Shown here: in pieces, positions 1-28,457 of the stretch | Position numbering within the stretch: the first letter of the stretch is position 1 | Layout of the letters: every line of letters begins with the position of its first letter | Source of the DNA: Propionibacterium ruminifibrarum | Lineage (GTDB): Bacteria > Actinomycetota > Actinomycetes > Propionibacteriales > Propionibacteriaceae | Reading direction: 5' to 3' | Length of the DNA: 31,301 nt | NCBI RefSeq assembly: GCF_900289195.1 | Contig: NZ_OMOH01000013.1 | Span: forward strand, 23,969 to 55,269 | Notes under the pieces: model-generated | Told to the model about the DNA's origin: nothing | Seen by the model: only the letters and a program-made list of their open reading frames with translations | Database searches by the model: none | Position numbers and translations under genes: made by a program

Positions 1-253
1 ATTTCCCCATCTATTCAGATGGGGCTCCATTGAGACAGTGGCATGTCCCCACGGTTGCGTCTGACGGGTGCGTATTTCCCCATCTATTCAGATGGGGCTC
101 CATTGAGACTCGTCGATGCGCATGGTGACGTCCCAGCCCTGCTCGCATTTCCCCATCTATTCAGATGGGGCTCCATTGAGACTTCAGCTCGTACCACGTC
201 ATCGACTGGTGCTCCTGATTTCCCCATCTACTCAGATGGGGCTCCATTGAGAT
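1..253 (+). CRISPR. CRISPR array fragment, truncated by the left window edge: four 36-bp repeats and three spacers (37, 37 and 35 bp)
   Basis: The repeat ATTTCCCCATCTATTCAGATGGGGCTCCATTGAGAC is exact at 1-36, 74-109 and 147-182. The fourth copy at 218-253 has two substitutions (T>C at 231, C>T at 253), as expected for a degenerate trailer-end repeat. The repeat contains the palindrome CCCCATCT/AGATGGGG. Its 3' end, ATTGAGAC, resembles the 8-nt 5' handle (ATTGAAAC/ATTGCGAC type) of type III/I crRNAs, which supports plus-strand transcription. Spacers lie at 37-73, 110-146 and 183-217. Confidence 0.95.
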
Positions 254-353: not shown

Positions 354-2550
354 CTAGTGAGAGTTGTGTCTGCGGCGCTGTTTATTTGGCCTGGGGATGA
401 TAATCGGCGTCGGAGTGTTAGCGGCCAAGTCGACGGGCGACAGGCCTCGCTTGTCTTTCGGCTTGCCAGTTTTTGAGTCGCTCTTGTTGTTCTCCTTGTT
501 CTCATCAAGGGTCATATAGCGAACCTCGGTGCCATCGCTGTAGCCGAACGCGGCACGTTGCAAGGCCTTCACCCAAGGAGTCTTCGGGAGGTTGTTGCCG
601 TTCGGTAAAGAGAATTCCGCGATCTCGGCTGGTGATGTCACGCTGCCAAGACAGCCATTCAAATTCACATAGTCGCTTGCGAGCTCTTCATTTTTAACTG
701 CACGTAGACCATTCTTGGCAATTCTTGTCTCCACAACGCCAAGACCAAATGGCTTACCCATCCCCATGCGCAAGAAACCGATGGCGCGTGGATCCTTTTG
801 TTTCTCGCTCGCTGGCACCAAGTTTTCCGGGGTCAGCAGCCAAATCAGTGCGCCAAGCTCCTCTCTGCTCAGATTGGTGAATCTCATCGTACAGCGCAAT
901 ACGCTGCCCACCTCCACCCCACGACCGCGCCGTCACTCGTACGGCCTCATTGCTATGGTCCAGGCCGGCTGATTGGGTAGAAGTGATTCCTTCCCTTGGA
1001 AAGCCTTTACGGTCCAGTAATTTTCGATGCACCGGATAGGCGGCGGCTCCGAGAGAATGATTCGCTGAAAAGAACTCGTTCCGCGCGAGCTCGGAATCGT
1101 CGTTCCTTGGTGTTTCGCCAGAACGGCTCATCGTGAGGAAACGGCGAGCCGAACTCGGCTTTGGGGACAGTAACGGTGCGAGCCGCATCGGGGGCGTCTT
1201 GTTATCGTCGGGGGCAGGGGTATCGACTTTATCGAAGGAGAGATGTCCTCGTGAGGCGACGTCCCCGCCAGTAGCACCCGCGCCAGCTTCGGGCACGACA
1301 TAGCCGAAAACCCTGTCAGCAGCCGACGCCTCAACCTTTTTTGCTACGGGTAGGACATTCTGGGCGGCGGCCAGCTCTCGAGGGGACTTGCTGTAAGGAC
1401 GGCGGCCGACCATTGTCGGGAAGACGTCCACGACCTGCGCGATGCCTGGAGACATTGGTTTGTCAGGGTCGATTGCGTCAGACAACTGGACGAAGACGAG
1501 ATCGCCTTCACTCATGTAGTCTGAAACGGATGCGGCTCGGTTGAGCACATGCTTGTCACCGCCCGGTTGTTCTCTCTGCTCGCGGTACGTGCGAAGGACC
1601 TCGGCATACCCGTCTACATGGCTGGCGCTGAGAGGAAGAATGCTCCCGGTGAGAGGCTCCCCGTTCGTGTCCGCCTTGAAGAAGAAACGTTCATAGATCT
1701 TCTCATCGTACAGTTCACGTGAGGTCTTGCCGTCTGGGCTCGTCCGGCACGGGTATCCCCACACGTCGAGAGTCCGCACGCTGTTCGCGCCAGTGATGGT
1801 GAAGAAGTTCTCGAGGTCCTCACCGTTCCACACGCCTGTGACCATGAGGTGCCTGCCAGATTTTCCCTTCTGCCATTCTGTGAGGCGGACCCTTGTCCAT
1901 TGCCCGTGAGGGGTCAGGCTGCGGAATCTCTGGAGAACTTGATTCTGGGTGATGACATTGCCGGGGCCGGTCGAGATCTCGGGATGGTTGTCGCGGACGA
2001 TGTCACCATGTCCCTTCCTCGCGTCATCGCGGATCAGGGCGCTGCGGAACTGACTGTTTTTGCCGTCAAGGATCTCCACAGCCAAGTTTCCGTCAGTGGT
2101 CGTGCAGATGCGGCCGGGGAAGAGGTTGTTGGCTGCTGCGGGATCAGCCCGGTAGGTCAGCCGCTGGGAGTGGTCGTTCTTGCTCCCCCGGAGTCCGGAC
2201 GTGTTCTCGACGGCGCCGAAGACGCGGAACCGCGAGCAGGTGAGGATCTCGAAGGCCCGCGAGATCATGCCCTTGACCATCGTCGGCGGGACCACGAGCT
2301 TGTCGTCGTCCACCATCGGGAGACTGATCTCGCCATCCTCCTGCTCCCCGAAGACCAGGGGCGTGCGGACAGTCATCTCCAGGTCGATCGATCCCGACCA
2401 GCGATCGGCGGCCAGGTGGTCGTGGCCGGTGGCCGGGCCATCGCTGAAGAGATCCTTCGGCAACAGATCCTTGCCCGCCATCTGCTGACTCGGTTGGCGC
2501 AGCACGGGAATCCTGTTGACCGCCGAGTGGAACGGTTTGAACTCACCCAT
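354..2550 (-). pseudogene. Large type III RAMP-family protein (TIGR03986/Csx10-like by motif), split by a +1 frame change near 905-932. About 731 aa if the frame is repaired.
   Basis: ORF 754-2550 begins with RAMP-type motifs (SGSIDLEMTVRTPLVFG, VVPPTMVKGMISRAFE). Its last ~55 aa read as low-quality sequence. ORF 354-917, in the adjacent frame, carries the expected RAMP C-terminus (RFTNLSREELGALIWLL ... GMGKPFGLGVVE, a G-rich loop). The downstream frame has a stop at 933-935, so the switch must lie in the G/C run at about 905-932. The ATG at 2550 lies 1 nt after the stop of the upstream gene (TGAGATG). Confidence 0.7.
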
Positions 2551-2551
2551 C

Positions 2552-3073
2552 TCAGGCCCACCTTCCCGTCATCAGCTCGTCGGTGAAGACGACATTGCCG
2601 TAGTCTTCCTCCTGCACGAACACCTCGACGCTCGTCATCCTCGGTTTCTTGTCCAGATCCGCTATGTCGCTGTGCTGCAGATAACTGTTGGTGCGGAACC
2701 AGCAGTTCTGGTCGGCTGCCGGGGCTTGTTCGTGCACGGAGATCTCCGCCGAGCCCGAGCCGTTGAGCCACCTCAGTTCACGGGCCTTCGCCCCGTCAAG
2801 CGCCTGCTGTCCCACGGCCCACAGCCGCAGCTCGTAGACGGTGCCCAGTGGTACCTCGTGGTCGGCCCCATCCAGCCTGGTCATCAGGGCCCCGGCAGAG
2901 GCCGCACGCACGGAGCGGGCCCCGGCCGTCGTATAGGCGATGCCCTGCCACTGTGGCGCGTTGCCGGTGAGTCGCGCCAAGGCCTCGCCCAGCGAGTCCT
3001 CGGTGAAGGGCGTGGAGGCCAGATGGCCCTCCTCCAGCAGGACCGGTTCGGCTTTCTCGGTGCTGGACATCAT
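2552..3073 (-). CDS. Small type III-associated subunit, 173 aa. It could be Csx19- or Cas11-like, but the family was not recognised.
   Basis: It starts at the ATGATG at 3073/3070 and overlaps the stop of the upstream gene (ATGA coupling). It sits between RAMP genes inside the operon. The longer track ORF (to 3487) is Arg/Gly-rich shadow sequence that overlaps the upstream gene. Confidence 0.65.
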   Translation of the reverse strand: MMSSTEKAEPVLLEEGHLASTPFTEDSLGEALARLTGNAPQWQGIAYTTAGARSVRAASAGALMTRLDGADHEVPLGTVYELRLWAVGQQALDGAKARELRWLNGSGSAEISVHEQAPAADQNCWFRTNSYLQHSDIADLDKKPRMTSVEVFVQEEDYGNVVFTDELMTGRWA

Positions 3074-4689
3074 GCGTCTTCCCCCTCGACGAGATAGGAC
3101 GACCAGCCGGTCCAGCCGTCGTCGCCGGCGGCCGGGTTCGGCTCGATCTGGACTTGCCTCAGCCGGGCCAGGATCTGCTCCGGCAGGGGCTCGGAGCCCT
3201 CGTCGTGAAGATCCCAGGGCTCTCCGACGATCCCCGTCCCGCCCTCGACACGGATCCGGGTGACCCGCACCTGCCCCAGGCCCCGCGTGCCACGACTGCC
3301 CAGCGGCAGGGTGCCCGCCGCGAGTTCGGCCAGCGTCAGACCCAGCAGGCACCATGCGGCCCTGCGACGGTTCAGGTCGGCTTCCTCTGGGAGCATGCCC
3401 GGATCCAGTTCGAGGTCGATGCTGTTCCAGTCGACGTCGTGCACCTCCTCGCTGTACAGGGCGCCCTCGGCGGCACCGCCGGTCCACCGGTCCCCGGCAT
3501 TGTGCGTGATCCTCCGTCCGGAAACGTGACCGGTGGCGAGGGTGTCGAGGACGGTGAGGGCGCCGCGGTGCTCGGTGCTGCCGAACAGGTCGCGCACGAG
3601 CACGGGATCATTGGCCAGCTGATCATGGACGCCGGTCTCGGACCAGTCGTGCTGGTCACCCAGCATGTCCCGGGCGGCGAGCACCGTGCGGGCGATCCGT
3701 GAGGCCCTGGACCGCAGCGCCCCGCGCACCGAGCTGCCGGGCAGCACCAGCGGATCGTTCTTGCCGGGGCCGCAGCGCAGCGGCCTGGTCGGCTCGGTCT
3801 CATTCGAGGACGGCTCCCCGTCCGCTGGTTCCCGGTCGGCTTCCTCGGCGGGCTCATTGGCCTTCTTCTCGCGAGGCTCGGCGACGAGGATCCCGCTCGG
3901 GCTGTCCCAGCCGATACTGATCCGCGCCCGCTCGTCACCCGAGCAGTCCGCGGGCCTGATGCGTTCGGTGATGTTCTGCCCGCCTGCCAGCCACGTCAAG
4001 AGCCCCTCACGCGAGCCGAGCTCGCTCCTGGTCAGCAGCCATGCCTCGTCGCCGTCGAGCTCGACGCGGCCCCAGCCGGCGTTGCGGCGCCCACCGAAAC
4101 CAACGCGCCCGGCCTTGAAAAGGCCCAGGATGAGACCGAACAACTGCTCGACCTGCTCAGGGCTCGCCCCCTGCTGCGGGGCACCGCCCCCGACGGGCGA
4201 CACCCCATCGGACGTGCCGGCCTGTGCGGTGATCGTGAGTGTGAGACTCCTGCCGGCCGGCACGTACTCGTGGGCGAAGAGCGCCGTGTCCCCGGCGGTG
4301 CCCCAGTACCGGTCGACGGCGATACCGGTGCGCCGTGCGAGCGGGCTCCGGCCCTCGTCGCCCTCGGTGCCCGCCGGATCCGTGAGGACCGCGGTCTTGT
4401 CGAGCTCGATGGCGTGGAAGGTCAGGGCAGCGGCGCGGTCCTGGTTCCCCCACAACAGCCCGAGGCCCCCGATCCGGTCACCGGCGAGTCGCTCGCAGGC
4501 CGCCCGCAGGGCGCCCTTGACCGATCGGCCCGTGATGACCGGGTTCCCGTGCCCGTCACGGGCGAAACACCGGGGTTCCGCCTCCCGGTCGGATCCGCTG
4601 CGGGAACGATCCACCGGCACGTCGACGCCGCCCGAGTGCAGCGGCGAACGGGTCACCAGGTGAACGGTCAACTCGTAGCGTGTCCTCAT
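3070..4689 (-). CDS. cas7: Cas7-Cas7 (Csm3/Cmr4-type RAMP) fusion protein, 539 aa
   Basis: Two RAMP cores are present: LVTRSPLHSGG ... PVITGRSVKGALRAACERL ... LWGNQDRAAALTFHAIEL, and PLVLPGSSVRGALRSRASRI ... LFGSTEHRGALTVLD. G-rich loops are present (GFGGRRNAGWGRV, GSRGTRGLGQV). The start overlaps the upstream stop (ATGA at 4686-4689). Confidence 0.8.
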   Translation of the reverse strand: MRTRYELTVHLVTRSPLHSGGVDVPVDRSRSGSDREAEPRCFARDGHGNPVITGRSVKGALRAACERLAGDRIGGLGLLWGNQDRAAALTFHAIELDKTAVLTDPAGTEGDEGRSPLARRTGIAVDRYWGTAGDTALFAHEYVPAGRSLTLTITAQAGTSDGVSPVGGGAPQQGASPEQVEQLFGLILGLFKAGRVGFGGRRNAGWGRVELDGDEAWLLTRSELGSREGLLTWLAGGQNITERIRPADCSGDERARISIGWDSPSGILVAEPREKKANEPAEEADREPADGEPSSNETEPTRPLRCGPGKNDPLVLPGSSVRGALRSRASRIARTVLAARDMLGDQHDWSETGVHDQLANDPVLVRDLFGSTEHRGALTVLDTLATGHVSGRRITHNAGDRWTGGAAEGALYSEEVHDVDWNSIDLELDPGMLPEEADLNRRRAAWCLLGLTLAELAAGTLPLGSRGTRGLGQVRVTRIRVEGGTGIVGEPWDLHDEGSEPLPEQILARLRQVQIEPNPAAGDDGWTGWSSYLVEGEDA

Positions 4690-6641
4690 CGCAGGCCTCC
4701 TTCAGCCGTCGGGCCGGCCTTCTGGTCGTTGCCGTCACCGCTCAGAAGGTGCTGCTGGGAAAGCCGGGTCAGGCCGAAGTCCTGCCGGCCCAGCAGCTCG
4801 TGCCCGAGGACGAATCGACCGAAACCCTGCGCTGTCAACTCCCCGAAACCGGTCACCGAGAGCCGGGCCAGCGCGGCAATCACCGCGCCGGGGTCAGCGC
4901 CGGGAACCGGCTGCACCCGCAGCACGGAACCGGCCCGGGCCGCCACGCGAGTTGCGCGCGGCTGCTGGTCGGCGGCGGACCAGGAGTCCACGCGGCGGTG
5001 CCGCACCCCGGCGGCGAGCGCGCCCTCGGCCCTGGCGAGTTCCACGTCGGCGCCCCCGCGGCCAAGGGCGGCGAGCAGATCGGACACGGTGCCGCCCGGC
5101 CCGAGGGCCCCGGATCTGGCGAGGACGTCAGAGGTGAACCACAGCGTCGTCGCGCCGTCCCCGTCCCAGGCCGGCCGGTCAGGACGGGCCGGGACGAAGT
5201 CTCCCGCCCGGCACTCCACGCGGCCGTAGGAGCCGCCCATCCGCCGGGAGCCCAGCCGGGCCGTCACCGGCTCACCGGCGGGGAACGCCTCGTGCAGGCG
5301 TTCGCCGAGGTGCTCGTGCAGCCGCTGCGACACGAGGACGGACGCCCCCATCCGCAGCCCGGCGGGCAGCGCCCGCACCAGGAACAACCGGCCCTGGCTC
5401 GCGGCGCCGGTGGCCGGGTCGTGGGCCGTGGACTGGCGCCCCACCAGGGCGGGCGCACCGAGGGACCCGGCCGACGGCATCCCAGCGGGTGCGTCCGCGG
5501 GGACGACGCCGGGGAAGACATAACCCGAACGGACCGGCACCTGCGCCCCGTCCGCGTCCTTGGCCGCGGATGAGGCGCCGAACAGCGGATTGCGCATCGG
5601 CAGGACCGCGGACCCCTGGTCGGGGGTCTTCGGCCTGGTCAGGACGAGCGGTGCCGGCAGGCCCCGCACGCCCTGGGCCATCACGGTGGCGTCGGAGACG
5701 AGCAGGTCACCGGCGACGACGGCGTCGCGCACCATCTCATCATCGGGGAAGGCCCGCCGCAGCCGGCGGTGCACCCAGGGCAGGAGCACCGTGCCGCGCA
5801 GGAAGTCCAGGGAGCGCACCTCGTTGGACAGCGGCACCTCGTAGGAGACCACCGGGGTGAGGAGCCTCAACACCAGGTCTGCCCCGACGAAGCCCGGATC
5901 ACCCGCCGCAGTGACACGGCTTGGGGTGAGGAGCGGGGCGGTGAACCCCCGGTCAGCGGCGGTCGGCGGGGTGGGTGCGGGCCCCGTCCACTCCTTGAGC
6001 CTGGTGCGGCACCACTCCCTGGCCTGCGGGGCGTCAACGGCGTCCCTGATGAGTACGTCGCACAGGCCGTCCCCGTCGGAGCGGTTGGAGCCGATACCGC
6101 GCACCAGGAGCCCCGACAGCGCCAGGATGAGCTCGGCGCCCTCCCGCTGGTCGGCCTCCCAGGTGAGGGGGCGTCCACGCAGATCGGTTTGCGACAGGCT
6201 CACCCGGCCGCGGAGGGTGCAGGCGGCCGCCCGCTCGAAGAAGCGCAGGAAATCGTTCTTGGCGGTGCCCGTGGTCTCGTCGATCGACAGCGAGACCACC
6301 TCGTGCACGGCGACGTCCGGGTCGTCGTCGGGGACGGTCGCGTCGGTGAAGCTCACCAGCCGCGGCGACTCGGGCGTGCCGAAGAGGGCGGTGGTGAAGT
6401 CGTGCCATGGGCCACGAGGGGCCTCGTCCAGGGCGCGGGCCGCGGTGGCGGCCTGCTCGCGCACCACGCCCGCCAGGACCGTGCCACGCACCACCGGCCG
6501 GCCGTTCGCGTCCTTCTCAACGACGGAATTCACCCCGCCGGCGATGCCGGTGCCCGTGCCCACACCCCAGTCGGAGCGGAAGACGACGGTGACGGGGAAC
6601 TCCAGTGCCCCTGGCTGCGGGGGCGCTGACGTACGGCTCAT
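4686..6641 (-). CDS. Multi-RAMP fusion protein, 651 aa. The N-terminus is Cas7-like, followed by at least one more RAMP domain (possibly Cas7/Cas5-like).
   Basis: N-terminal motifs: FPVTVVFRSDWGVGTG ... GRPVVRGTVLAGVVRE ... LFGTPESPRLVSFTDA ... GIGSNRSDGDG. Second module: LVLRLLTPVVSYEV ... FLRGTVLLPWVHRRL. The C-terminus has the G-rich loop TGFGELTAQGFGRFVLG. The start overlaps the cas10 stop (ATGA at 6638-6641). Confidence 0.75.
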   Translation of the reverse strand: MSRTSAPPQPGALEFPVTVVFRSDWGVGTGTGIAGGVNSVVEKDANGRPVVRGTVLAGVVREQAATAARALDEAPRGPWHDFTTALFGTPESPRLVSFTDATVPDDDPDVAVHEVVSLSIDETTGTAKNDFLRFFERAAACTLRGRVSLSQTDLRGRPLTWEADQREGAELILALSGLLVRGIGSNRSDGDGLCDVLIRDAVDAPQAREWCRTRLKEWTGPAPTPPTAADRGFTAPLLTPSRVTAAGDPGFVGADLVLRLLTPVVSYEVPLSNEVRSLDFLRGTVLLPWVHRRLRRAFPDDEMVRDAVVAGDLLVSDATVMAQGVRGLPAPLVLTRPKTPDQGSAVLPMRNPLFGASSAAKDADGAQVPVRSGYVFPGVVPADAPAGMPSAGSLGAPALVGRQSTAHDPATGAASQGRLFLVRALPAGLRMGASVLVSQRLHEHLGERLHEAFPAGEPVTARLGSRRMGGSYGRVECRAGDFVPARPDRPAWDGDGATTLWFTSDVLARSGALGPGGTVSDLLAALGRGGADVELARAEGALAAGVRHRRVDSWSAADQQPRATRVAARAGSVLRVQPVPGADPGAVIAALARLSVTGFGELTAQGFGRFVLGHELLGRQDFGLTRLSQQHLLSGDGNDQKAGPTAEGGLR

Positions 6642-8398
6642 GCCCGGCCCTCCTCAACGGTCGAGTGATCCGCGGCCGATGGCTTCCTGGCCCCGGAAGG
6701 AGGCGGGGACGCCGTGCCCAGCGGGTCGTCCAGGTACGAGGCGGGGAGCAGATCGGTCAGATCCATGAGGTCGAACATGGCCCGTTTTCCGCCGAGCCGC
6801 TTCGCATCCGGGAAATGGTCCTCGGCATCTCGCCACTCGTCCTCGGCCTGTTCCAGCAGCCGGTCGTGTTCCGCGGTGTTCCCGGCGAGTTCGGCTTGGG
6901 CGGCGTTGGACATCATCGCGCGGATGCGCGCGGCCCGGGTGCGGGGGAAGCCGTCCTGCCGGTCGTCATCGTTCTGCGAGATCGCGCCCGCGAAGAGGCG
7001 AACCTGCTCACAGACCTCCGGCCAGGCGGCATGCCCGGCGAGACCCTGCGACGAGCCGGCGGTGTCGGATCGCAAGACGAAGGGCCGGTTGCTGAGCCGC
7101 CCGTAGGCGGCGAGCAGTTCCTCGGGGTCGAGCACCGTGGTGTCGAGCAGCACGTGGTAGGTCAGTGTCGAGACCGATGGGGAAGCGGTCTTGCCGACCT
7201 CCTTGGCCTCGTCGACGAGGCGTTCGGCCAGGTCGTAGGCGAGGTGGAAGGGGAATTTGAATCGGACCACGGCTGCACCGGCGGCCGCCGTCATCGGCCC
7301 GGTCTGGCCGTCGGGGTGGTCCCCGAGGTGCCTGAGCAGGGGGTCGGCGGCAGTGGCCTGCTCGTAGTGACGCAGATAGGCGGCGGCGAACGGCAGGGCG
7401 TAGTCGCCGCTCGTGATGACGGTGACGTCATCACCGCCGAGCAGCACGGGCACGACGGGGATGACCTTGTACTCCCTGCCAGCCGTGACGGCGTCCTTCT
7501 CGGCCCAGCCGGCGACATCGCGCCAGGCCAGCCGGCAGGCCTGGCGCACGGCGCGGTCCAGGTTCTCGTTGACGGCGAGGGTGAACTTCCGAAGGGCGTC
7601 GGCGTCATCGGGTGTGCACTTGACGGCCTGCGTGAACTCCTCGCAGGGGACGCGGCGCATGGCGGCGGCGAGATCACGCATGATCGCCCCGACGCCGTTG
7701 CCGTCGATGTGGACGATGGCGACCTTCGACAGGCCGCCCTGGGAGTCGTCCTCGTTGTCGGGCTGGAGCATCCGCTCCAGCCTGGTCGGGTCGCGGGCGA
7801 GTTTCTCGTCCGCCCCCGTGGGGGCCAGGTCTTTGAGCAGCTTCGAACGCGCCGCGTGCACGGGGAGCCTCTTGTGACGTGAGGGCAGCGAGTAGGGCTC
7901 CTTCCTGTCCTCGTGGGGCTCGTCGTCCTGGTCCAGCGGGGGAGCGGCCGGCAGGGCCGAGTCGCTGGCCCCGGCAAGGAAGGGCATCCGGGCGAACCGG
8001 CCGTCGGCGGGAGGCCGCCGCAGGGCGTACTCGGCGGCGGCCTCGTTGAGGGCCCGCAGGTCGCCCGCCCCGAAGTACTCAGAACCCGTCTTCACGTAGA
8101 CGCCACTGACGTCCATTCCCGGCGCCTTGCCGAAGGCCCGCAGCGTGACATCGCGGATGATGTTCCTGGCCTCGGTCTCGTCGTCGACGGTGACGATGAC
8201 CCTGCCCGAGGAACGCGACACCCACTGATGATCATTGGTCTCACACCGATCATCGGTATCCGGCTTCTTCGGGAGGGCACAGGCTACCCAGGACTCGAGA
8301 TCGGTGATCTGGTGCGAGGCGCCGATGCTCTCCCGCAGCCGCGGGGACTCGAAGATGAAGCGCTGCTTGCTGTTGACGTCGAGGAGGACGGCGTACAT
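6638..8398 (-). CDS. cas10: Cas10-like cyclase/palm subunit lacking an HD nuclease domain, 586 aa
   Basis: The N-terminus MYAVLLDVNSKQRFIFESPRLRESIGASHQI is a Cas10 palm-entry motif with no preceding HD domain. Cyclase motifs are present: IVHIDGNGVG and VLLGGDDVTVITSG (GGDD). ATG at 8398 is preceded by GAGG, 17 nt after the upstream stop. The track ORF extension to 8725 overlaps the upstream gene and looks non-coding. Confidence 0.85.
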   Translation of the reverse strand: MYAVLLDVNSKQRFIFESPRLRESIGASHQITDLESWVACALPKKPDTDDRCETNDHQWVSRSSGRVIVTVDDETEARNIIRDVTLRAFGKAPGMDVSGVYVKTGSEYFGAGDLRALNEAAAEYALRRPPADGRFARMPFLAGASDSALPAAPPLDQDDEPHEDRKEPYSLPSRHKRLPVHAARSKLLKDLAPTGADEKLARDPTRLERMLQPDNEDDSQGGLSKVAIVHIDGNGVGAIMRDLAAAMRRVPCEEFTQAVKCTPDDADALRKFTLAVNENLDRAVRQACRLAWRDVAGWAEKDAVTAGREYKVIPVVPVLLGGDDVTVITSGDYALPFAAAYLRHYEQATAADPLLRHLGDHPDGQTGPMTAAAGAAVVRFKFPFHLAYDLAERLVDEAKEVGKTASPSVSTLTYHVLLDTTVLDPEELLAAYGRLSNRPFVLRSDTAGSSQGLAGHAAWPEVCEQVRLFAGAISQNDDDRQDGFPRTRAARIRAMMSNAAQAELAGNTAEHDRLLEQAEDEWRDAEDHFPDAKRLGGKRAMFDLMDLTDLLPASYLDDPLGTASPPPSGARKPSAADHSTVEEGRA

Positions 8399-8415: not shown

Positions 8416-9708
8416 TCAGGACTGTTCGGTGGGCTCGGGTGCGAGGACCTCCTTGATGACACCGCCGGCCCGCGCGGTGGTCACATCCAGCGCAGGGACG
8501 TACTGTGCCGTGTTCTTGTCGTACTCGTACACGGTGAAAGAGAGCGTGTTGACCAACCGACCGATGAGGAAGGCCACTGCATATGGTCCGCGCAGGAAGA
8601 GGTGCACATGAGGGATCCCATGGGCGCCGCACATGGCACGAATGTGGTCGGTGATCTGCTTCGCGATCGCAGCCCCGTCCAGAGGATCTATCCAGCCAGG
8701 CTGTGCCAGTCGCAGATGACTCCATGCGCGCAGGCGTCCCTTCATCGTGTCGAGGAAGCCATTGAAGGCCTTGTTACTAATATCGTCACGCAGGTCGACG
8801 TAGACGGCGAGCTCGCCAGATTCAGACGGGTTGTCTTCGCCAGATGCCACTTCGGTGACGAATTCGCCGGTACCGGCGGGTCCGCTGGGCCAGACCTTGT
8901 TCCAGTTGTCGGTGACCTCCGCACGCCCGATCAGGGTTTCCGGGAACTGGGCGCCCAGGGCGAACGCGACGGACAGGTGTGCATGTCCGCTCACCCTCAA
9001 CAGTGAGGCGCCGTGGTTCGCGATGGCACCACGGACGATCCCCAGCACGGCTTGAAGGTCTTCAAGGCTCTGCCGGCGGATGGGCTCATCTTCCGAATCG
9101 GGCAGGACCATGTCGAAATGGTGCTTGGCCCGTGACGAGTTCGGCGAATCATCGGGCCGTGTCTCGATGTTCAGTTCGATCGCGTCGGTGTCGGCTGCGA
9201 GCGCTGCGAGGTGATCCTTGACGTAGGCGGTGATGAATTGCTTCTGGTCCGAATCCTTCAAGCCATCAAAGGTCTTCCCATCAGGGCCCTTTTTTGCCAT
9301 GAACTGCATGATTTCAGACAATGTGCCCTCTGGTTTGCGGAGCACCCTGTCCGGTTCATTAATGTCGAGTCGTTCACCGTTTGACACGGCATTGACGAGG
9401 GTCAGCGAGAACTTCTGGTTGTTCTCAAGGAGATCGAGCAGGCCGGTGGCCTCCAGCGTCTGAATGATCTCACTGTTCTCGACGTCGGGAGTCACGACGA
9501 GGACGCCACCAGACAGTCCATTGCCCATCGCCTCCTCGATACGGGCCTCGATGGAACCGGTGGTGAGGTCCTCCTTGTCACGCCAGACCGGTATGCCCGC
9601 TGCGCGCAGCAGCCAGGCCAGTCGGTCGGCGATCTTCTCCCCATCTGAGTGACGGTACGAGATGAACACCGGCCCTCGCGCGTCGTACTTGGTTGTGACA
9701 GCGGGCAT
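8416..9708 (-). CDS. TIR-SAVED fusion effector (predicted cyclic-oligoadenylate-activated NADase), 430 aa
   Basis: The N-terminal TIR motif block is VFISYRHSDGEKIADRLAWLLRAAGIPVWRDKEDLTTGS ... GGVLVVTPDVENSEII. The C-terminal half has SAVED-like blocks (LRVSGHAHLSVAFALGAQF ... HVHLFLRGPYAVAFLIGRLVN ... FTVYEY). AGGAGG precedes the ATG at 9708. It is the first gene of the cas operon. Confidence 0.85.
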   Translation of the reverse strand: MPAVTTKYDARGPVFISYRHSDGEKIADRLAWLLRAAGIPVWRDKEDLTTGSIEARIEEAMGNGLSGGVLVVTPDVENSEIIQTLEATGLLDLLENNQKFSLTLVNAVSNGERLDINEPDRVLRKPEGTLSEIMQFMAKKGPDGKTFDGLKDSDQKQFITAYVKDHLAALAADTDAIELNIETRPDDSPNSSRAKHHFDMVLPDSEDEPIRRQSLEDLQAVLGIVRGAIANHGASLLRVSGHAHLSVAFALGAQFPETLIGRAEVTDNWNKVWPSGPAGTGEFVTEVASGEDNPSESGELAVYVDLRDDISNKAFNGFLDTMKGRLRAWSHLRLAQPGWIDPLDGAAIAKQITDHIRAMCGAHGIPHVHLFLRGPYAVAFLIGRLVNTLSFTVYEYDKNTAQYVPALDVTTARAGGVIKEVLAPEPTEQS

Positions 9709-9722
9709 GTGTCCTCCTGGGG

Positions 9723-9746
9723 CGCGGGCCCGGGTCGGGGCCCGCG
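9723..9746 (-). promoter_or_regulatory. GC-rich hairpin about 14 nt upstream of the TIR-SAVED start codon
   Basis: CGCGGGCCC (9723-9731) pairs perfectly with GGGCCCGCG (9738-9746) across a 6-nt loop. On the minus strand it lies just 5' of the AGGAGG ribosome-binding site. Its function is unknown; it could be the terminator of the upstream remnant or a 5' UTR element. Confidence 0.3.
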
Positions 9747-9774
9747 GTGGATCGGTGGTTTACCGGGCCCCGCA

Positions 9775-10149
9775 TCACGAAGGTCGTCGGCGACCACGCG
9801 AAGACGAGGCTGTCGGGGATGTCTCACGACGGACTCTACCGCTGTTGGCGATTCGGAGGCGCCGTATCACCAAGTGGTCTTCGTGCTTGTGGGGAGCAGG
9901 TTCCAGCAGGTGCGACCACTCGTGCACAGTGAAGCCACACGCCGAGGCCGCCAGGGAAACGAGCCGTTCGCGTGGGGAGGGCATGGCGCTTGCCCGCCAT
10001 CAAGTCGAACGCAGCACCGTAGCCTGCTTGGAAAGCTCGTCTTCCCCGAATGAACCGAGGATGGACTGCGAGTCGACGATGATCACTTCGTTCCGGCCGA
10101 TGATTGCGCATGCGGCGCCGATGGCGTGGTGAAGCTCATCACGACGCAT
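9775..10149 (-). pseudogene. Possible decayed nucleotidyltransferase-type (toxin-like) gene remnant
   Basis: A short ORF at 10000-10149 (MRRDELHHAIGAACAIIGRNEVIIVDSQSILGSFGEDEL) resembles the N-terminus of small nucleotidyltransferase-fold toxin-like proteins, then hits a stop. A different frame (9775-9984) continues with GFTVHEWSHLLEP ... HEDHLV. The total length is too short for an intact member. This is recognition from memory only. Confidence 0.25.
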
Positions 10150-10552
10150 AATGCTCGCGTTCCCAGTCGATGATGGCTTGCCTTTGGACAGCGGTGAGAA
10201 GGCCCGCCATGGAGAGACCTCGCGGAGCTGGCAGGAGTCCTCATCCTCGGCGCACATGCGTTCCCTCATGGCGGAGGCATCCTGGGCCTCTACCCACTTC
10301 TCCCAGCGCTCGGTGTTGGCCAGGTGCAGGGCCCCTCGATTCGCCCTGCGATTGCGGCGTATGCCGGCGCGAGCGATAGCGAGCCAGGACACGGTGTCAT
10401 CCCAGTTGACCGATGCCTCGAGCAGGCGATGCAGGAGCAGGCTGTGTCGACGCGAACGGCTGGAGGCCACACGTCTGCAGGCGCCTCGCCTATCGTTGGG
10501 GCAGGGCCCGCATGCCGGATGCGGGCCGGACAGAGCGAGGAGAACCCGCAGC

Positions 10553-11257
10553 GTGAACGCGACCACTGGCAGCGTCGTCGAGATCTACCTGGCGCGGCAC
10601 GGGCAGACGTGGTTCAACAAGCGCGACCGCGTGCAGGGCTGGTGCGACTCCCCGCTGACCGAGGCCGGCCACGAACTCGCCGCGGCGCTCGGGCGCGGGC
10701 TCGCCGGCGACGGCATCGTCCTCGACGCGGCCTACAGCGGCGACATGGTTCGCCACCACGAGACCGCCCAGGGCGTCCTCGACGCCATGGGCTCGCCCCT
10801 GCCCGTCACCCAACTCCGGGCACTGCGCGAGATGTCCTTCGGCGGCTGGGAGGGCGGCTTCGACCCGGACATGTGGCGGGCCTGCTGGGACAACCTCGGC
10901 GTCAGCACCGACGAGGAGGCCTTCGCCAGGGGGCTTCGCCTCGTCGACGTCTACGACGGCATCAGCATCACCAATCCCGACCCCGACTACCCGGCCGAGA
11001 ACACCGCGGCCGTCGCCGACCGCGCGGTCGTCGCCCTCAACGACATCGCCGACACCGAGGCGGGTCTGCGCGAACGCTCCCGCGTCCTCGTCGTGACGAG
11101 CGGCATCACCGTCGTCTGCGTGCTCACGGCGCTCGGCTTCCCGCCGAGGAACCGGGTGGGCAACGGCGCGGTCGCCCTGCTGCGCCGGGACGCCTCCGGC
11201 TGGAGCGCCGCGACCGTCAACGACATGAGTTGGGCGAAGAACGGCCGCGCCGCCTGA
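10553..11257 (+). CDS. Histidine phosphatase (phosphoglycerate-mutase-like) family protein, paralog A
   Basis: It contains VEIYLARHGQTWFNKRDRVQGWCDSPLTEAG (RHG motif) and REMSFGGWEG. GTG at 10553 is preceded by GAGGAG. The track ORF extension back to 10151 is antisense to the remnant region. Confidence 0.8.
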   Translation: MNATTGSVVEIYLARHGQTWFNKRDRVQGWCDSPLTEAGHELAAALGRGLAGDGIVLDAAYSGDMVRHHETAQGVLDAMGSPLPVTQLRALREMSFGGWEGGFDPDMWRACWDNLGVSTDEEAFARGLRLVDVYDGISITNPDPDYPAENTAAVADRAVVALNDIADTEAGLRERSRVLVVTSGITVVCVLTALGFPPRNRVGNGAVALLRRDASGWSAATVNDMSWAKNGRAA

Positions 11258-11361: not shown

Positions 11362-12069
11362 ATGACCGAGACCAAGGGGCCCGTCGAGATCTACCTGGTA
11401 CGCCACGGCGAGACCTGGTTCAACAAGCTCGACCGCGTACAGGGCTGGTGCGGCACCCCGCTCACGCCCAGGGGCTTCGCCGTCGCCCAGGCGATCGGCC
11501 GGGCCTTCGCCAGCGCCGGCATCGACTTCACGGCCGCCTACTGCGGCGACATGCTGCGCCACCACGAGACGATGACCTCGCTGCTCGCCGGCATGGGCTC
11601 CACCCTGCAGCCGATCTCGCGTTTCGGCCTGCGCGAGATGTCCTTCGGTGCCTGGGAGGGCATGCCGAACAAGCTCATGTGGGAGGCCGCGTTCCGGGAG
11701 CTGGGCGTCGCCTCGGTGCAGGAGGCCCTCGATGCCGGCCACACCCTCCTCGACATCTACGACGTCTTCAGCCGCACCAACCCCGACACCGACTACCCGT
11801 CGGACAACGTCAGGCAGGCGGCCGACCGGGCCCTGGCGACACTCGACGAGATTGCCGAGACGGAGGCCTCGCCGGGGGACACGCCCAGGGTGCTGGTGGT
11901 GAGCAGCGGCGTGACGATTGCCTGCATCGTCGACCGGCTGGGCGCCGAACTCACCGCCCCGATCCACAACGGCGGCGTGAGCCGCCTGCTGCGCGGGGAG
12001 AACGGCGACTGGACCGTGCTCGACCACGACGACGTCAGCTGGGCCGAACGGGGCGGCTGGCAGGGCTGA
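11362..12069 (+). CDS. Histidine phosphatase family protein, paralog B
   Basis: It contains VEIYLVRHGETWFNKLDRVQGWCGTPLTPRG and REMSFGAWEG. It is collinear with paralog A along its whole length. GAAGGAG precedes the ATG at 11362. Confidence 0.85.
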   Translation: MTETKGPVEIYLVRHGETWFNKLDRVQGWCGTPLTPRGFAVAQAIGRAFASAGIDFTAAYCGDMLRHHETMTSLLAGMGSTLQPISRFGLREMSFGAWEGMPNKLMWEAAFRELGVASVQEALDAGHTLLDIYDVFSRTNPDTDYPSDNVRQAADRALATLDEIAETEASPGDTPRVLVVSSGVTIACIVDRLGAELTAPIHNGGVSRLLRGENGDWTVLDHDDVSWAERGGWQG

Positions 12070-12073
12070 GTGC

Positions 12074-13873
12074 TCAGCGGAGGGCGTAGAGCCGGTTGGG
12101 CGTTGGTCGGCTTGACGGCAGGTTGACATAGACGAGGACCGCCCCGGGGACGGCGGCGAGTACCACCCCCTCGAATCGTTCACCCACCGTGTTGCGCCGG
12201 TTCATCCGTTCCAGACAGTTGTACTCCTCCATGGTGATCTCTGTTGTGCTGCTCGCCGAGCCGTTGGGTGCTGCCAGGTGCAGTCGGTACACGTAGGCGG
12301 AGTCCTCGTAGTCCTTGGTGATGTCGAACGTGGTGGCATCGACTGCGGAGGATAGTTCGATGGGGGTCGCGGTGCGGGTGGCCGGGTCGAAGACGGCGGC
12401 GGGCTGTTCCTGGGGATCGATCCTGTCCTCGCTGGGCCACATGCTTGCGATGAGGCTCGTGTGCGACAGGGCAAGGTCTGGCCCGATGGTCTGGCCGAGG
12501 TCGATGCCCTGGACGCCGGCGGTGCCGGCTGCCGCCACCTCGTCGATGCTGATGGCGGCAGCCGGACTGCCCTCGGCGTATGTGGGTTCGTCGGTGTAGT
12601 GGATCGTCCAGCCGTCGATGATCAAGGGCCGGTTGGCGCTGGTGGCCACCGTGCTGAGGTGGGTTCTTCGGTCCGGGTCGTCCTGGGGCACCAGGACGAG
12701 ATCGGTGGCCATGTCTGATCCCGGCTCACTGCGCAGGACGAATGTCGAGTGGCCCGCCGGGCCGACGTACGCAGACGGGTCGGAGCTGGTGGTTTTTTGT
12801 TCGGGCAGGGCCCATAGGGTCGTGCCGGTGGCCAGGTCGATTGCCTCGGTGCCGATGAGGGCAGCGGTGTCGGTGAGCTGGATCGGCTGGGTGCCGGGGA
12901 TCGGTTTGCCCTCTGCAGTGGCATCCATGGCGAGTGCGCGTTCGGTGACGACTCGCCCAGTGAGGGTGTCGAGGACGGTGACGAGCGTCGCGCGGGTCCA
13001 TTGTCTCGAACTGCTTCCCTGACGTCTGAGGCTGTCCTCCGGCGCCAGAGTCACGAATGACGCGTAGTGGTGGTCGGGGCCGGTGATGATCCTGGTCGGT
13101 GTGCGGACGTTTGACGCTGACAGGTTGAGCAGCTGGGCGTTGGGCCGGTGGTAGGTCCACCGGGTCGACCCGTCGGCCGGGTCGAGGCCGAGAATCCTGC
13201 TGCCGTCGGCGAGGATGGGGCCTGCGGCCCCGGCGGTGATCGTGTCGACGTCCTCGTCGAGGTCGAGGGTCCAGGCTAGGTCTCCGGCCACCGTGGCGGG
13301 CATGGCCGGGATCTCCGGCGGTTTGGGGGCGAGCTGCTGGATCGGCCGTGCCACCCAGGTGGGGACGAGTGCCACGGCCAAGGCGAGGACCACGCTGAGA
13401 AGGCCGGTGAGGGCGGTCGCGGTGTGGGACGTGGCGTCAGTGGGGAGTGGCCGCCAATGGGCCGTGTCCCGCGGGCCACCCGAGTCACGCGAGGGATGGG
13501 TGCGCAGCAGCAGGTCCGAGATGGCGAGGGCGCCGGAGCACAGGCAGACGACCCCGATGATGACAGGATGGCCGAGGAAGAACCCGGAATCAGCGGCCAC
13601 CCGTACCGAACAGCCTGTGCAGAGGGCCATGGCCGCAATCGACAGCACGGCGATGATGACTGGTGCGGTCGCCAGGTTTCCTCTGGGGCCCGGGCCGAGA
13701 TCCCAGGAGATGGTCACGCCGAAGCCCCACATGACGAGAGTGACGGGCACGAACAAGACAGCGGTTACGAGGGGCTCATTCGTGACGATGATGTCCTGCG
13801 CCAAGAACCGGACGGCCAGCACGACCAGGGCGACGATGGCGAGGAGTGCGCCGGCGCGGATGCCGCGCAGCAC
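12074..13873 (-). CDS. Polytopic membrane protein with a beta-propeller-like (PQQ/BamB-like repeat) ectodomain, paralog 1. The N-terminus is disrupted by a 1-nt deletion.
   Basis: Hydrophobic helices are followed by repeats of the type GLDPADGSTRWTY, VLDTLTGRVV and AIDLATGTTLWALP. The longest in-frame start is GTG at 13873. The family N-terminus (MNPATADGHEKQ ... MSRTR, ATG at 13998 behind GGAGGA) is in another frame, because ACCCGG-TCGGC lacks one base relative to ACCCGGATCGGC in paralogs 2 and 3. If the frame is repaired the gene spans 12074-13998. Confidence 0.75.
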   Translation of the reverse strand: MLRGIRAGALLAIVALVVLAVRFLAQDIIVTNEPLVTAVLFVPVTLVMWGFGVTISWDLGPGPRGNLATAPVIIAVLSIAAMALCTGCSVRVAADSGFFLGHPVIIGVVCLCSGALAISDLLLRTHPSRDSGGPRDTAHWRPLPTDATSHTATALTGLLSVVLALAVALVPTWVARPIQQLAPKPPEIPAMPATVAGDLAWTLDLDEDVDTITAGAAGPILADGSRILGLDPADGSTRWTYHRPNAQLLNLSASNVRTPTRIITGPDHHYASFVTLAPEDSLRRQGSSSRQWTRATLVTVLDTLTGRVVTERALAMDATAEGKPIPGTQPIQLTDTAALIGTEAIDLATGTTLWALPEQKTTSSDPSAYVGPAGHSTFVLRSEPGSDMATDLVLVPQDDPDRRTHLSTVATSANRPLIIDGWTIHYTDEPTYAEGSPAAAISIDEVAAAGTAGVQGIDLGQTIGPDLALSHTSLIASMWPSEDRIDPQEQPAAVFDPATRTATPIELSSAVDATTFDITKDYEDSAYVYRLHLAAPNGSASSTTEITMEEYNCLERMNRRNTVGERFEGVVLAAVPGAVLVYVNLPSSRPTPNRLYALR

Positions 13874-14061
13874 GCCGACCGGGTTCTGGACATAGCGGCT
13901 GCTGGTTTCTCGGTCTTGCCGGTGTCCTGGTCAGTTGTCGCGCTGGTGTCGGTGCCGGCGAGTTGCTTCTCGTGGCCATCAGCGGTGGCGGGGTTCATGG
14001 AGGTTCCTCCCGGCTGGGTCGGTTCTTTCGGGCCTGGGCGTGTCTGGTCTCTTGGGCGGGT

Positions 14062-15954
14062 TCAGCGGAGCACGTAGAGCCTGTTGACGGAGAACGGCCA
14101 CGTCAGCTCGACGCGCACCAGGATCGCTCCCGGGACCGCGGAGACCGTCGCGTCCAAGAATTGCGTGTCGGACCGATCGTTCCGGCTGGCCGCCCGGCAC
14201 AGCTCCTCGAACTCGTCATCGCTGACCGCCACGTCAGCGGTCACCGGGCCATCGGGGGAGGTCATGTGCACCTGCAGCACACGCGCGCGGCGCGCGGCCT
14301 CACTGGTGGCGTCGAGCCTGGCGGTGTCGACCGTCGCGGACTGCTCGACGGGGCTCGCGGTACGGGTGACCGGGTCGAAGACGGTGGCGGGCCGCGTCAC
14401 CGAGCGAGCGACGCTGCTGTCCGAGGCGGTCGCGATGAGGCTCGTGTGAGACCGGCGGTAATCCGGGCCCATGGTCTGTCCGAGGTTGATTCTCTGCACA
14501 CCGTCGGTGCCGCCTGCTGCCGCCACCTCGTCGATGTTGATCGCGGCCGCCGGGCCGCCGTCGTCGTACGTCGGCTCCTCGGTGTACCGGATCGTCCAGC
14601 CGTCGATGAACAAGGGGTAGAAGTCATGATCGTTGAGGCTCACGTCGTCGAGGGCCGTCGTGCGGTCCGGGTCGTCCTGGGGCGCCAGGACGAGGGACGC
14701 GGTGAGTACCGACGTGTCCACCTCCCTGTGCAGGATGAATGTCGAGTGTCCTGCCGGGCCGGCGTAGTTGGGGGCGGCCCCTGAATCGGGGAGTGTCCAG
14801 AGGGTTTTTCCGGTGGTCAGGTCGATGGCCTCGGTGCCGATGAGGGCCGCGGTGTCGGTGAGCTGTACCGAATCCCAGTCGGCAGTCGATTCGCTCGTGA
14901 TGGTGCGTTCGGCGACGACCCGCCCGGTGAGGGTGTCGAGGACGGTGACCAGTGTCCGGCGCACGGATCGCACCGAGCTCTTCATCCACCGTGTGAGGAT
15001 GCTCTGGGGCATCCTGGTGTTGAACGCGGCGTAGCGGTGGTCGGGGCCGGTGATGATCTCTCCATAGTTTCCCAGGCTGAGGAGTTCGGCGTTGGGGCGG
15101 TGGTAGGTCCACCGGGTCGATCCGTCGGTGGGGTCGAGGCCGCGAATCTGGGTGCCGGTGACGAGGATGGGGCCGGCCGCCCCGGCTGCGAGCGTGTCCT
15201 TCTCGTCGAGGTCGAGGGCCCAGGCGAGGTCTCCGGCCACCGTGGTGGGTGTGGTGTCGCGTTCGGTGGGTTCTGGTGAGAACTGCTGGATCGGCCGAGC
15301 CGCCCAGGTGGGGGCCAGCGCCACGGCCAGGATCAGGACCAGGGCGACGAGGCAGGTGAGGGCGGTTGTGACGCGGGAGGTGTCACCGGAGGCCAGTGGG
15401 CGCCAGCGGGCGATGTCGTGCGGCCCTCCCAGGCGGCGTGCCGGGTGGGTGCGCAGCAGCATGTCGGCGCCGGCGAGGACGCCGGAGCCGAGGCAGGTGG
15501 CTCCGATGGTGACCGGGTAACCGGGGAAGAAGCCGGAAGTGGACGCCGCCCTTGCCGAGGCGCCGGCGCAGACGGTCAGGGCCAGGACCGACAACACGGC
15601 GATGGCGGTCAGGGCGGTCACCCTCCTGGCCACGGCGTCGGGGACGAGATCTCCGTCGGCGGATGCGGAGGACCTCCAGACGACGAGGAGGGCGGACGCA
15701 TACAGGGCCACGACCCAGAAGGGCGTGCTCGTGGCGGCGTCGTGGCGCAGGAACCACACGGTCAGCGCCACCAGGGCGGCAGTGGCGAGGAGTGCGCCGG
15801 CGCGGATGCCGCGCAGCACGCCGATCCGTGCCCTGGTCATTGACGGCGCAGTTCTCTCGGCCCGGCTGGTTGCCGCGCCGGCGGCGTGCTGGTTCGCGTT
15901 GATGGTGGAGTCCATGGTGCCTGTCCTTGCTGCCGTGTTGGTCCTGTCGTGCAT
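14062..15954 (-). CDS. Polytopic membrane / beta-propeller-like protein, paralog 2
   Basis: It has the same architecture as paralog 1 (RIGVLRGIRAGALLAT ... LLRTHPARRLGGPHDIARWRPL ... GLDPTDGSTRWTY ... AIDLTTGKTLWTLP). An alternative start is the ATG at 15915, which has an AAGGA upstream. Confidence 0.8.
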   Translation of the reverse strand: MHDRTNTAARTGTMDSTINANQHAAGAATSRAERTAPSMTRARIGVLRGIRAGALLATAALVALTVWFLRHDAATSTPFWVVALYASALLVVWRSSASADGDLVPDAVARRVTALTAIAVLSVLALTVCAGASARAASTSGFFPGYPVTIGATCLGSGVLAGADMLLRTHPARRLGGPHDIARWRPLASGDTSRVTTALTCLVALVLILAVALAPTWAARPIQQFSPEPTERDTTPTTVAGDLAWALDLDEKDTLAAGAAGPILVTGTQIRGLDPTDGSTRWTYHRPNAELLSLGNYGEIITGPDHRYAAFNTRMPQSILTRWMKSSVRSVRRTLVTVLDTLTGRVVAERTITSESTADWDSVQLTDTAALIGTEAIDLTTGKTLWTLPDSGAAPNYAGPAGHSTFILHREVDTSVLTASLVLAPQDDPDRTTALDDVSLNDHDFYPLFIDGWTIRYTEEPTYDDGGPAAAINIDEVAAAGGTDGVQRINLGQTMGPDYRRSHTSLIATASDSSVARSVTRPATVFDPVTRTASPVEQSATVDTARLDATSEAARRARVLQVHMTSPDGPVTADVAVSDDEFEELCRAASRNDRSDTQFLDATVSAVPGAILVRVELTWPFSVNRLYVLR

Positions 15955-15971
15955 CCGGGCCGGGATCGGTG

Positions 15972-17891: not shown

Positions 17892-17955
17892 GGGGTTCCT
17901 CACGGCTGTGCTGGTTCTGTTCGGGCCTGGGCGGTTTCCGGTCTCTCGGGCGGGT

Positions 17956-21234: not shown

Positions 21235-21421
21235 GGCGGCATGGTCTCCTTCGGCGGGTGCGGCCCAGCGTAGAACAGTCCGCCCGTTCGCGGACCCGGG
21301 GTGCGCTCGACGCCCAGGTGGCGCAGGGGCGGACCCCACCCACGGCCGCAGGCCCGGCTGCTCCGTGCGGTGCCGCTCGCCCGCCCCGGTACGGTGGGGT
21401 CATCGTCACGAAGGAGGCCCC

Positions 21422-25328: not shown

Positions 25329-25438
25329 CGTCTGCGGATCGGTCGTCACCCCGTCAGCCTGCCGCCGCCGACGTGAGCGCACAAGACGGCACTTCGCGGT
25401 GCGGTGCTCACCCGCAGGTGACCCGGCTCCGGCCCGCC

Positions 25439-28196: not shown

Positions 28197-28457
28197 GCGC
28201 CATGATTTCAGCTGGCGGTGAACATGAACCGTGGTGCGGCCGCTCCCTCAGGTGCTGGCCCCGGGTCGCCGTGAGCCGGATGGCTCGCGTCGGGGCGGGC
28301 CGCTTCGGAGTCCGGCCACCAGTGCCCACCACGCGCCGGGGCTCCGCGTCCGGTGGTGGTCCACGTTCCGGAAGGGCGGGCGCCGGGGTCCTCGGGCGCA
28401 TACAATCGACGACTGCACCCCCTAGTGGAGCGCCTCTACCCCAAGGAGCTTTTCTTC

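Follow-up and report, generated by a model that had tools for sequence, protein, structure and literature searches.

We analyzed a 31,301-nucleotide (nt) stretch of DNA from Propionibacterium ruminifibrarum (hereafter, the window) that includes a CRISPR-Cas locus headed by a gene for a TIR-SAVED fusion protein. To judge from its sequence, this protein is almost certainly a signal-activated enzyme that destroys NAD+, and it is very probably the signaling-activated effector of the type III-Dv CRISPR-Cas system of P. ruminifibrarum. The features of the window are summarized in Table 1.

Domain architecture and predicted fold of the TIR-SAVED protein

The product of the first gene of the operon is a true TIR-SAVED protein, with matches to this class that are far beyond chance. 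Both domains are recognized by Pfam profiles above the gathering cut-offs, namely, TIR_2 (residues 14-81, E=2.2e-10) and SAVED (residues 223-408, E=3.6e-22). These matches bear out the original prediction, a model's reading of the DNA and its open reading frames (ORFs) that proposed a TIR-SAVED fusion and whose quoted peptide blocks are all present in the translation of this ORF. The C-terminal region also matches the NCBIfam SAVED family NF033611 (residues 192-410, E=1.1e-25), and the full-length PADLOC model PDLC02012 ("SAVED5--SAVED_TIR") covers residues 1-422 of the 430 (E=4.8e-125). In a search of the PDB sequences, the only strong match is 7QQK, a "TIR_SAVED fusion protein" (E=1.8e-63), and the alignment is collinear, with residues 6-421 of the query aligned to residues 4-427 of the chain. 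An AlphaFold2 model built from 120 homologs (mean pLDDT 93.2, pTM 0.92) retrieves 7qqk_A as the top Foldseek match in the PDB (E=3.5e-36, template modeling (TM) score 0.87), with the SAVED domains of Cap4, SAVED-CHAT and Cap5 ranking next, so that the predicted C-terminal SAVED domain is found at the level of both profiles and structure. The NCBI record with an identical protein belongs to P. ruminifibrarum.

Several residues with demonstrated roles in two tested enzymes, the Microbacterium TIR-SAVED (7QQK) and TSR1, a TIR-SAVED-Crn4 protein from a type III-D locus, are conserved in the active site and on the ligand-binding faces. The catalytic glutamate that the predicted TIR block called for is present as E86 (codon GAG, nt 9453-9451), aligned with E84 of 7QQK and invariant in 120/120 homologs; the NADase activity of the Microbacterium enzyme is lost in the E84Q mutant (10.1101/2022.05.04.490601) and TSR1-mediated immunity is abolished by E86Q (bioRxiv 10.64898/2026.09.16.751991). 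D47/L48 of the BB loop (nt 9570-9565) correspond to Microbacterium D45/L46, the alanine replacement of which (D45A/L46A) likewise eliminates activity (10.1101/2022.05.04.490601). In the sensor, T183/R184, located just upstream of the SAVED boundary, and N387/T388 are the conserved equivalents of T189/R190 and N425/T426 of TSR1, and both T189E/R190E and N425E/T426E abolish the function of TSR1 (bioRxiv 10.64898/2026.09.16.751991).

Association with a type III-Dv CRISPR-Cas system

The TIR-SAVED gene and cas10 lie on the same strand, with 17 nt between the TGA of the former (8418-8416) and the ATG of the latter at 8398, and no terminator-like site was found on the coding strand between the two genes. 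An AGGAGGA Shine-Dalgarno sequence, 5 nt before the TIR-SAVED ATG, is conserved, and a TAGAGT (-10-like) element located ~125 nt upstream of the gene is common to all four loci compared, from which we infer a promoter function for the conserved 5' region of the operon. The original prediction that this gene is the first cistron of the effector operon agrees with this arrangement. The order TIR-SAVED followed by cas10 is retained in every member of the clade examined, including P. australiense (locus L001), two metagenomic Propionibacterium loci (L003 and L004), and, from a more distant lineage, L087, L091 and L092/93.

The genes downstream of the TIR-SAVED gene encode the components of a type III-Dv effector complex. 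Cas10 matches the type III-Dv Cas10, chain C of PDB 8S9T, with E=1.3e-40 and with the GGDD motifs aligned; this cyclase motif occupies residues 321-324 (nt 7438-7427), and no HD domain is present, with no HD dipeptide in the first 120 residues. The Cas7-insertion protein matches chain E of 8S9T (7e-20, with an ortholog as the query), the two Cas7 fusions match other chains of the same structure (Table 1), and Csx19 has no match among the PDB sequences. The window begins inside the CRISPR array. The degenerate last repeat of this array adjoins the cas genes and the repeats end in ATTGAGAC, which makes transcription in the direction of the cas operon probable; P. australiense carries a homologous array after its cas genes. 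Neither the array nor its three spacers match any of 50,697 phage records. Given the subunit matches, the HD-less GGDD Cas10 and the CRISPR array, the locus is, by gene content, a type III-Dv system in which TIR-SAVED is the only visible ancillary effector.

The partners with which TIR-SAVED proteins are combined elsewhere were sought in the window. No cGAS/DncV-like nucleotidyltransferase (CD-NTase) was found, either with tblastn using 24 CD-NTases from homologous loci or with Pfam profiles on the window ORFs, and Pfam detected no E1/E2 or JAB partners of the cyclic oligonucleotide-based antiphage signaling system (CBASS) on the ORFs of the 31-kb window. A hidden Markov model made from 8 TSR1-like proteins yielded nothing below E=0.5 for Crn4 in the six-frame translation of the window, and tblastn likewise yielded nothing; Pfam and PADLOC searches of the flanking ORFs revealed no other ring nucleases in the 31-kb window. 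Scanning the window against Rfam gave no match.

Relatives of the TIR-SAVED protein

The closest homolog of the window protein is encoded by P. australiense (78% identity), followed by three metagenomic or metagenome-assembled-genome Propionibacterium proteins (51-55%), and then, after a gap, by proteins with 41% identity or less. All members of this close clade that have enough flanking sequence share one operon organization, with TIR-SAVED, Cas10, Cas7-Cas5-Cas11, Cas7-2x, Csx19 and Cas7-insertion.

A scan of one genome per species (185,579 species), complemented by contig look-ups, yielded 85 non-redundant TIR-SAVED loci. A CD-NTase of the SMODS family is encoded nearby in 75 of these, usually with ThiF/E2 and JAB genes, that is, in type II CBASS. 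A second lineage of stand-alone TIR-SAVED proteins (P0053/P0066/P0082, with 51-162 member sequences each) is 36% identical to the query, and has Cas10 encoded directly downstream that is 45-52% identical to the Cas10 of the window. This second lineage is found on the metagenomic contigs L087, L091 and L092/L093, with a III-Dv-like cas10 directly after the TIR-SAVED gene. In a bioinformatic survey, TIR-SAVED was detected in 7/1113 type III loci, of types III-A/B/D (Hoikkala et al. 2024, PMC11229360); the second lineage suggests that stand-alone TIR-SAVEDs linked to Cas10 are more common in metagenomes than these 7 complete-genome loci would indicate.

The TSR1-like proteins (TIR-SAVED-Crn4, 586-632 amino acids (aa)), which stood in for the TSR1 sequence in our comparisons, are encoded at the head of type III operons or beside cas6. 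They are only 28-33% identical to the query, more distant than the CBASS enzymes, and belong to a separate clade, which rules out that the window protein is a truncated TSR1. In a midpoint-rooted neighbor-joining (NJ) tree, the Propionibacterium clade groups with the P0053 lineage in a single Cas10-linked clade nested among the CBASS enzymes, and the TSR1-like proteins form a separate clade; this topology is tentative because the tree carries no bootstrap support.

Selection and mosaic divergence

The ratio of nonsynonymous to synonymous substitution rates (dN/dS) of the TIR-SAVED gene, measured against three orthologs, is 0.39-0.45, indistinguishable from the values for cas10 and the Cas7 fusions, indicating that the gene is under purifying selection to the same extent as the cas genes.

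The divergence between the window and the metagenomic locus L003 is strikingly uneven. The upstream flank and cas10 are 90-95% identical at the nucleotide level, the TIR half of the effector gene 77-87%, and the SAVED half, compared over positions 8451-9200 of the window and 2000-2915 of L003, only 55-69%, with identity returning to 93% exactly at the start of cas10. The same gradient is apparent in the amino acid sequences (70% in the TIR domain versus 47-56% in the SAVED domain) and in the synonymous divergence (dS of 0.74 for TIR-SAVED versus 0.16 for cas10). This mosaic pattern is consistent with a sensor half that was replaced by recombination.

Proposed mechanism and activating ligand

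By homology, a CRISPR RNA-guided complex consisting of Cas10, Cas7-Cas5-Cas11, Cas7-2x, Csx19 and Cas7-insertion would bind a complementary foreign transcript, whereupon the GGDD Palm site of the HD-less Cas10 would produce cyclic oligoadenylate (cOA). By analogy with 7QQK and TSR1, the cOA would be sandwiched between head-to-tail SAVED domains via T183/R184 and N387/T388, and the resulting stacking would bring neighboring TIR domains together. The composite TIR site, including E86 and D47/L48, would then hydrolyze NAD+, arresting the infected cell. This scheme has several precedents. In the Synechocystis III-Dv complex, cOA synthesis is triggered by the binding of target RNA and is abolished by mutations in the Palm site (PMC11026444); the TIR-SAVED studied by Hogrel et al., when coupled to a cOA-producing type III complex, provides type III-dependent immunity (10.1101/2022.05.04.490601); and TSR1 is a cA3-activated NADase (bioRxiv 10.64898/2026.09.16.751991).

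The most likely activating ligand is, in our analysis, cyclic triadenylate (cA3), a choice held with modest confidence and favored because both characterized relatives use cA3 and because the TSR1 contact pairs are conserved. No ring nuclease being detected in the window, the response probably proceeds without a dedicated off-switch, in contrast to the "self-limiting" TSR1.

Counter-evidence and alternative explanations

Several observations weigh against the proposed role or against parts of the proposed mechanism. Three residues probed in the Microbacterium enzyme are changed in the window protein, so that the alignment to the published TIR-SAVED, envisaged as a check in the original prediction, recovers the catalytic glutamate and the T/R and N/T pairs, but not two of the sensor residues. 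S390 (nt 8541-8539) replaces R388, the tail-face arginine whose replacement in R388E abolishes multimerization and activity (10.1101/2022.05.04.490601). Y396 (nt 8523-8521) replaces W394, which stacks on the adenine and whose replacement by alanine weakens cA3 binding (10.1101/2022.05.04.490601), although the aromatic character is retained. I116 replaces Y115, a residue of the composite NAD+ site; the Y115A mutant retains 10% of the activity (10.1101/2022.05.04.490601). Furthermore, TSR1 deprived of the Crn4 domain is an inactive monomer (bioRxiv 10.64898/2026.09.16.751991), which implies that a CRISPR version naturally lacking Crn4 must oligomerize in another way. With respect to the ligand, cyclic tetraadenylate (cA4) has been tentatively proposed for CRISPR-linked TIR-SAVEDs (Hoikkala et al. 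2024, PMC11229360), and the effector activated by the Synechocystis III-Dv complex is a Csx1 (PMC11026444); both render cA4 plausible. The gene for the Cas7-insertion protein contains a frameshift that, unless it arose in sequencing, could leave the sensor complex non-functional. Finally, our literature search found no biochemical characterization of the window protein or its clade.

The changes at R388, W394 and Y115 are not private to the window protein. W394 is retained in 75/75 CD-NTase-adjacent homologs versus 1/9 Cas10/Cas6-adjacent ones, R388 in 56/75 versus 0/9, and Y115 in 70/75 versus 4/9, where the nine Cas10/Cas6-adjacent homologs represent two or three lineages rather than nine independent events. 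Within the Propionibacterium clade, the Y115 position is variable (I/P/I/W/W), the BB loop contains TTG in place of PPG, and 8 residues are deleted after the W394 strand. Given the three changed residues and the overall identity of ~36%, filament formation and cA3 specificity should not be transferred from the Microbacterium enzyme without direct tests.

These lineage-wide changes in the sensor and the BB loop lend some weight to the possibility, which we consider real but not probable, that the pathway is the same and the sensor has been re-tuned, such that the protein responds to cA4 or another Cas10 product, and/or assembles into a small oligomer as opposed to the CBASS filament with 17 subunits per turn. 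The two observations cited above in favor of cA4 point the same way, as does the fact that active TSR1 is a dimer, so that filaments are not obligatory. However, the cA3-contact pairs of TSR1 are conserved in the window protein, TSR1 itself uses cA3 though it lacks R388 and mostly lacks W394, the tyrosine is still able to stack on adenine, and a pocket sized for cA4 has no structural support.

A broader reading of the same changes, tentative and less likely than not, is that the stand-alone, Cas10-adjacent TIR-SAVED clade, comprising the proteins of the window, P. australiense, the metagenomic Propionibacterium loci and the P0053/P0066/P0082 lineage, could be a separately recruited CRISPR effector with a remodeled sensor. 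The remodeling would consist in the loss of the filament-promoting arginine, the replacement of the pocket tryptophan by tyrosine, a shortened loop and the lack of the Crn4 staple. If this is the case, the protein might be activated by another product of Cas10 or assemble unlike both 7QQK and TSR1, and the sharp mosaic divergence that is restricted to the SAVED half in otherwise nearly identical loci might be the trace of an arms race with cOA sponges or ring nucleases of phages.

The frameshifted Cas7-insertion gene raises the question of whether the locus of this strain is decaying, with the surveillance complex inactivated and TIR-SAVED never triggered by CRISPR targeting. Compared to three orthologous loci, none of which has the insertion, the gene carries 1 extra nt at about 917-919: the intact orthologs (722-748 aa) align in frame -1 down to nt 919 and in frame -2 from nt 917, so that the gene is split into ORFs of 598 and 187 aa. 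Nevertheless, decay appears improbable. The insertion falls within a G run (GGG -> GGGG), as is typical of errors in sequencing or assembly; the downstream piece is conserved about as well as the upstream one (60-66% versus 62-76% identity) and contains no further lesions; and the TIR-SAVED gene and all other cas genes are intact, with dN/dS of about 0.4. The frameshift is more likely to stem from faulty sequencing or from a mutation of very recent date than from long-standing decay.

It is also conceivable, although decidedly unlikely, that TIR-SAVED acts largely independently of Cas10 and senses a nucleotide that comes from the host or is induced by phage, for instance, c-di-AMP; a haloarchaeal TIR-SAVED defense is reported to be cyclase-independent and c-di-AMP-responsive (preprint 10.1101/2025.06.19.660554). 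The distinct history of the effector gene within the locus, with its mosaic SAVED half, would be compatible with such autonomy. In two diverged lineages, however, the gene occupies a tight, conserved and translationally coupled site directly upstream of cas10, and no stand-alone copy of the clade was found away from cas10. Although most homologs are CBASS effectors, the notion that this gene is one as well and stands beside a CRISPR locus by chance has next to nothing to recommend it, given the lack of CD-NTase, E1/E2 and JAB genes in the 31-kb window, the operon shared with cas10 and the retention of this arrangement in loci whose identity has fallen to 36-51%. The assignment of TIR-SAVED as the effector of the type III-Dv system thus remains the preferred one.

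Features and chromosomal neighborhood

Table 1. Features of the 31,301-nt window (strand relative to the window as read)
Feature	Position (nt)	Strand	Description
CRISPR array	1..253	+	window start cuts array; four 36-nt repeats (ATTTCCCCATCTATTCAGATGGGGCTCCATTGAGAC), spacers 35-37 nt
Cas7-insertion (TIGR03986 RAMP)	354..2550	-	two ORFs, 754-2550 and 354-917; PADLOC matches on both
csx19	2552..3073	-	173 aa; PADLOC Csx19 1.1e-52; start set from 173-aa orthologs
Cas7-2x fusion	3070..4689	-	539 aa; 8S9T chain D 5e-22; two RAMP stretches 2e-34
Cas7-Cas5-Cas11 fusion	4686..6641	-	651 aa; 8S9T chain A 4.4e-39; RAMP, Cas7_IIId and Cas5_IIId profiles
cas10	6638..8398	-	586 aa; PADLOC Cas10 1.6e-106; Pfam Cas10-Cmr2_palm2
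TIR-SAVED gene	8416..9708	-	430 aa; ATG start, TGA stop; first cistron of the operon
SAVED sensor domain	8479..9135	-	~residues 192-410; NCBIfam and Pfam SAVED
TIR (NADase) domain	9334..9669	-	~residues 14-125; Pfam TIR_2, 7QQK alignment
Conserved operon 5' region	9709..9910	-	83-88% identical to upstream regions of L001 and L003
Intergenic region upstream of TIR-SAVED	9709..10580		about 860 nt
ORF in the intergenic region	10000..10566	-	188 aa; no family match
Two tandem His_Phos_1 genes	~10580..11257 and 11362..12069	+	divergent from TIR-SAVED
Four tandem paralogous genes	12074..19851	-	599-674 aa; weak PQQ_2/BamB-like beta-propeller match each
ADP-ribosylglycohydrolase and Macro-domain genes	20146..21339 and 24534..25475	-	11-16 kb from TIR-SAVED
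Repeat-bearing ORF	28353..29738		461 aa; no Pfam match
Tandem repeats	29226..29542	+	imperfect 90-nt (and 45-nt) repeats; Ser/Glu/Thr-rich low-complexity stretch

The intergenic region upstream of the TIR-SAVED gene is unusually long. It is 88% conserved in L003 and poorly conserved in P. australiense, except for the 200 nt adjoining the gene.

Beyond this region, P. australiense and L004 also carry His_Phos_1 genes at the position that they occupy in the window, and the upstream flank of L003 is ~84-88% identical to the window at the nucleotide level across the His_Phos_1 region, indicating that the CRISPR locus occupies a fixed chromosomal site in the genus. The four beta-propeller-like paralogs correspond to a single, identically positioned copy in P. 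australiense, and the paralogy of these tandem genes accounts for the 18-nt motif GGCCGCGGTGCCGATGAG, which occurs twice, at nt 14827 and nt 18739. The ADP-ribosylglycohydrolase and Macro-domain genes are syntenic in P. australiense, but the more distant L004 has neither in its 10-kb flank; these genes are probably mere chromosomal neighbors. Together with the His_Phos_1 genes, likewise syntenic in P. australiense, they were considered and rejected as parts of the system, and no functional link is claimed.

Comparison with known systems

The original prediction placed the protein as a member or relative of a class typified by a TIR-SAVED from a Microbacterium type III locus. Membership in the class is upheld, although the window protein is no close copy of the Microbacterium enzyme, but the stated origin is incorrect: the M. 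ketosireducens enzyme comes from a type II-C CBASS operon and was coupled artificially to the type III system of M. tuberculosis (10.1101/2022.05.04.490601). The window protein resembles the Microbacterium enzyme in the two-domain architecture, length (430 versus 433 aa), collinearity and fold (TM 0.87), as well as in the catalytic Glu, the BB-loop Asp-Leu and the N-T and T-R motifs of the ligand faces. It differs in sequence (~36% identity overall, 47% in the TIR domain and 24-38% in the SAVED halves), in the signaling partner (Cas10 versus a CD-NTase) and in the specific changes described above (R388 to Ser, W394 to Tyr, Y115 to Ile, PPG to TTG and the 8-residue deletion after the W394 strand).

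TSR1, from Arachnia propionica (bioRxiv 10.64898/2026.09.16.751991), is likewise a TIR-SAVED associated with type III-D in Propionibacteriaceae. The two proteins share the catalytic E86, identical even in number, and the T/R and N/T pairs that contact cA3, and both lack the tail-face Arg; the position of the window gene as the first cistron before the effector-complex genes recurs in the TSR1-like locus L086. Unlike TSR1, the window protein lacks the C-terminal Crn4 ring-nuclease/dimerization domain with its catalytic His (430 versus about 600 aa), and it is only distantly related to the TSR1-like proteins (28-33% identity, separate NJ clade).

The CRISPR-associated TIR-SAVEDs of the Hoikkala et al. 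survey are, like the window protein, encoded inside type III loci and predicted to be activated by cOA. The Synechocystis III-Dv system (PDB 8S9T-8S9X; PMC11026444) corresponds to that of the window in Cas10, Cas7-Cas5-Cas11, Cas7-2x and Cas7-insertion, each of which matches the corresponding chain, as well as in the presence of Csx19 and in the HD-less Cas10 with GGDD; it differs in the ancillary effector, which is the RNase Csx1 in Synechocystis and TIR-SAVED, at the head of the operon, in the window. Cat1 (CARF-TIR; PMC12162218) is another cOA-gated TIR NADase that serves type III CRISPR, but it senses cA4 through a CARF domain, not through SAVED, and there is no sequence relationship outside TIR.

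The Crn4-fused TSR1 is the only CRISPR TIR-SAVED characterized in its native CRISPR context. The present locus combines a natural TIR-SAVED that lacks a ring nuclease with a type III-Dv complex of defined structure, and could settle which cOA, cA3 or cA4, is read by CRISPR-linked TIR-SAVEDs; whether they require filaments, dimers or another assembly, given the inactivity of Crn4-less TSR1 and the missing Arg; and whether CRISPR can run a TIR effector without an off-switch. Should the protein simply behave like 7QQK, it would be a routine additional example. TIR-SAVED proteins in type III loci were already known as a rare class; what appears to be new is a member of a stand-alone, Cas10-adjacent clade with systematic changes in key residues.

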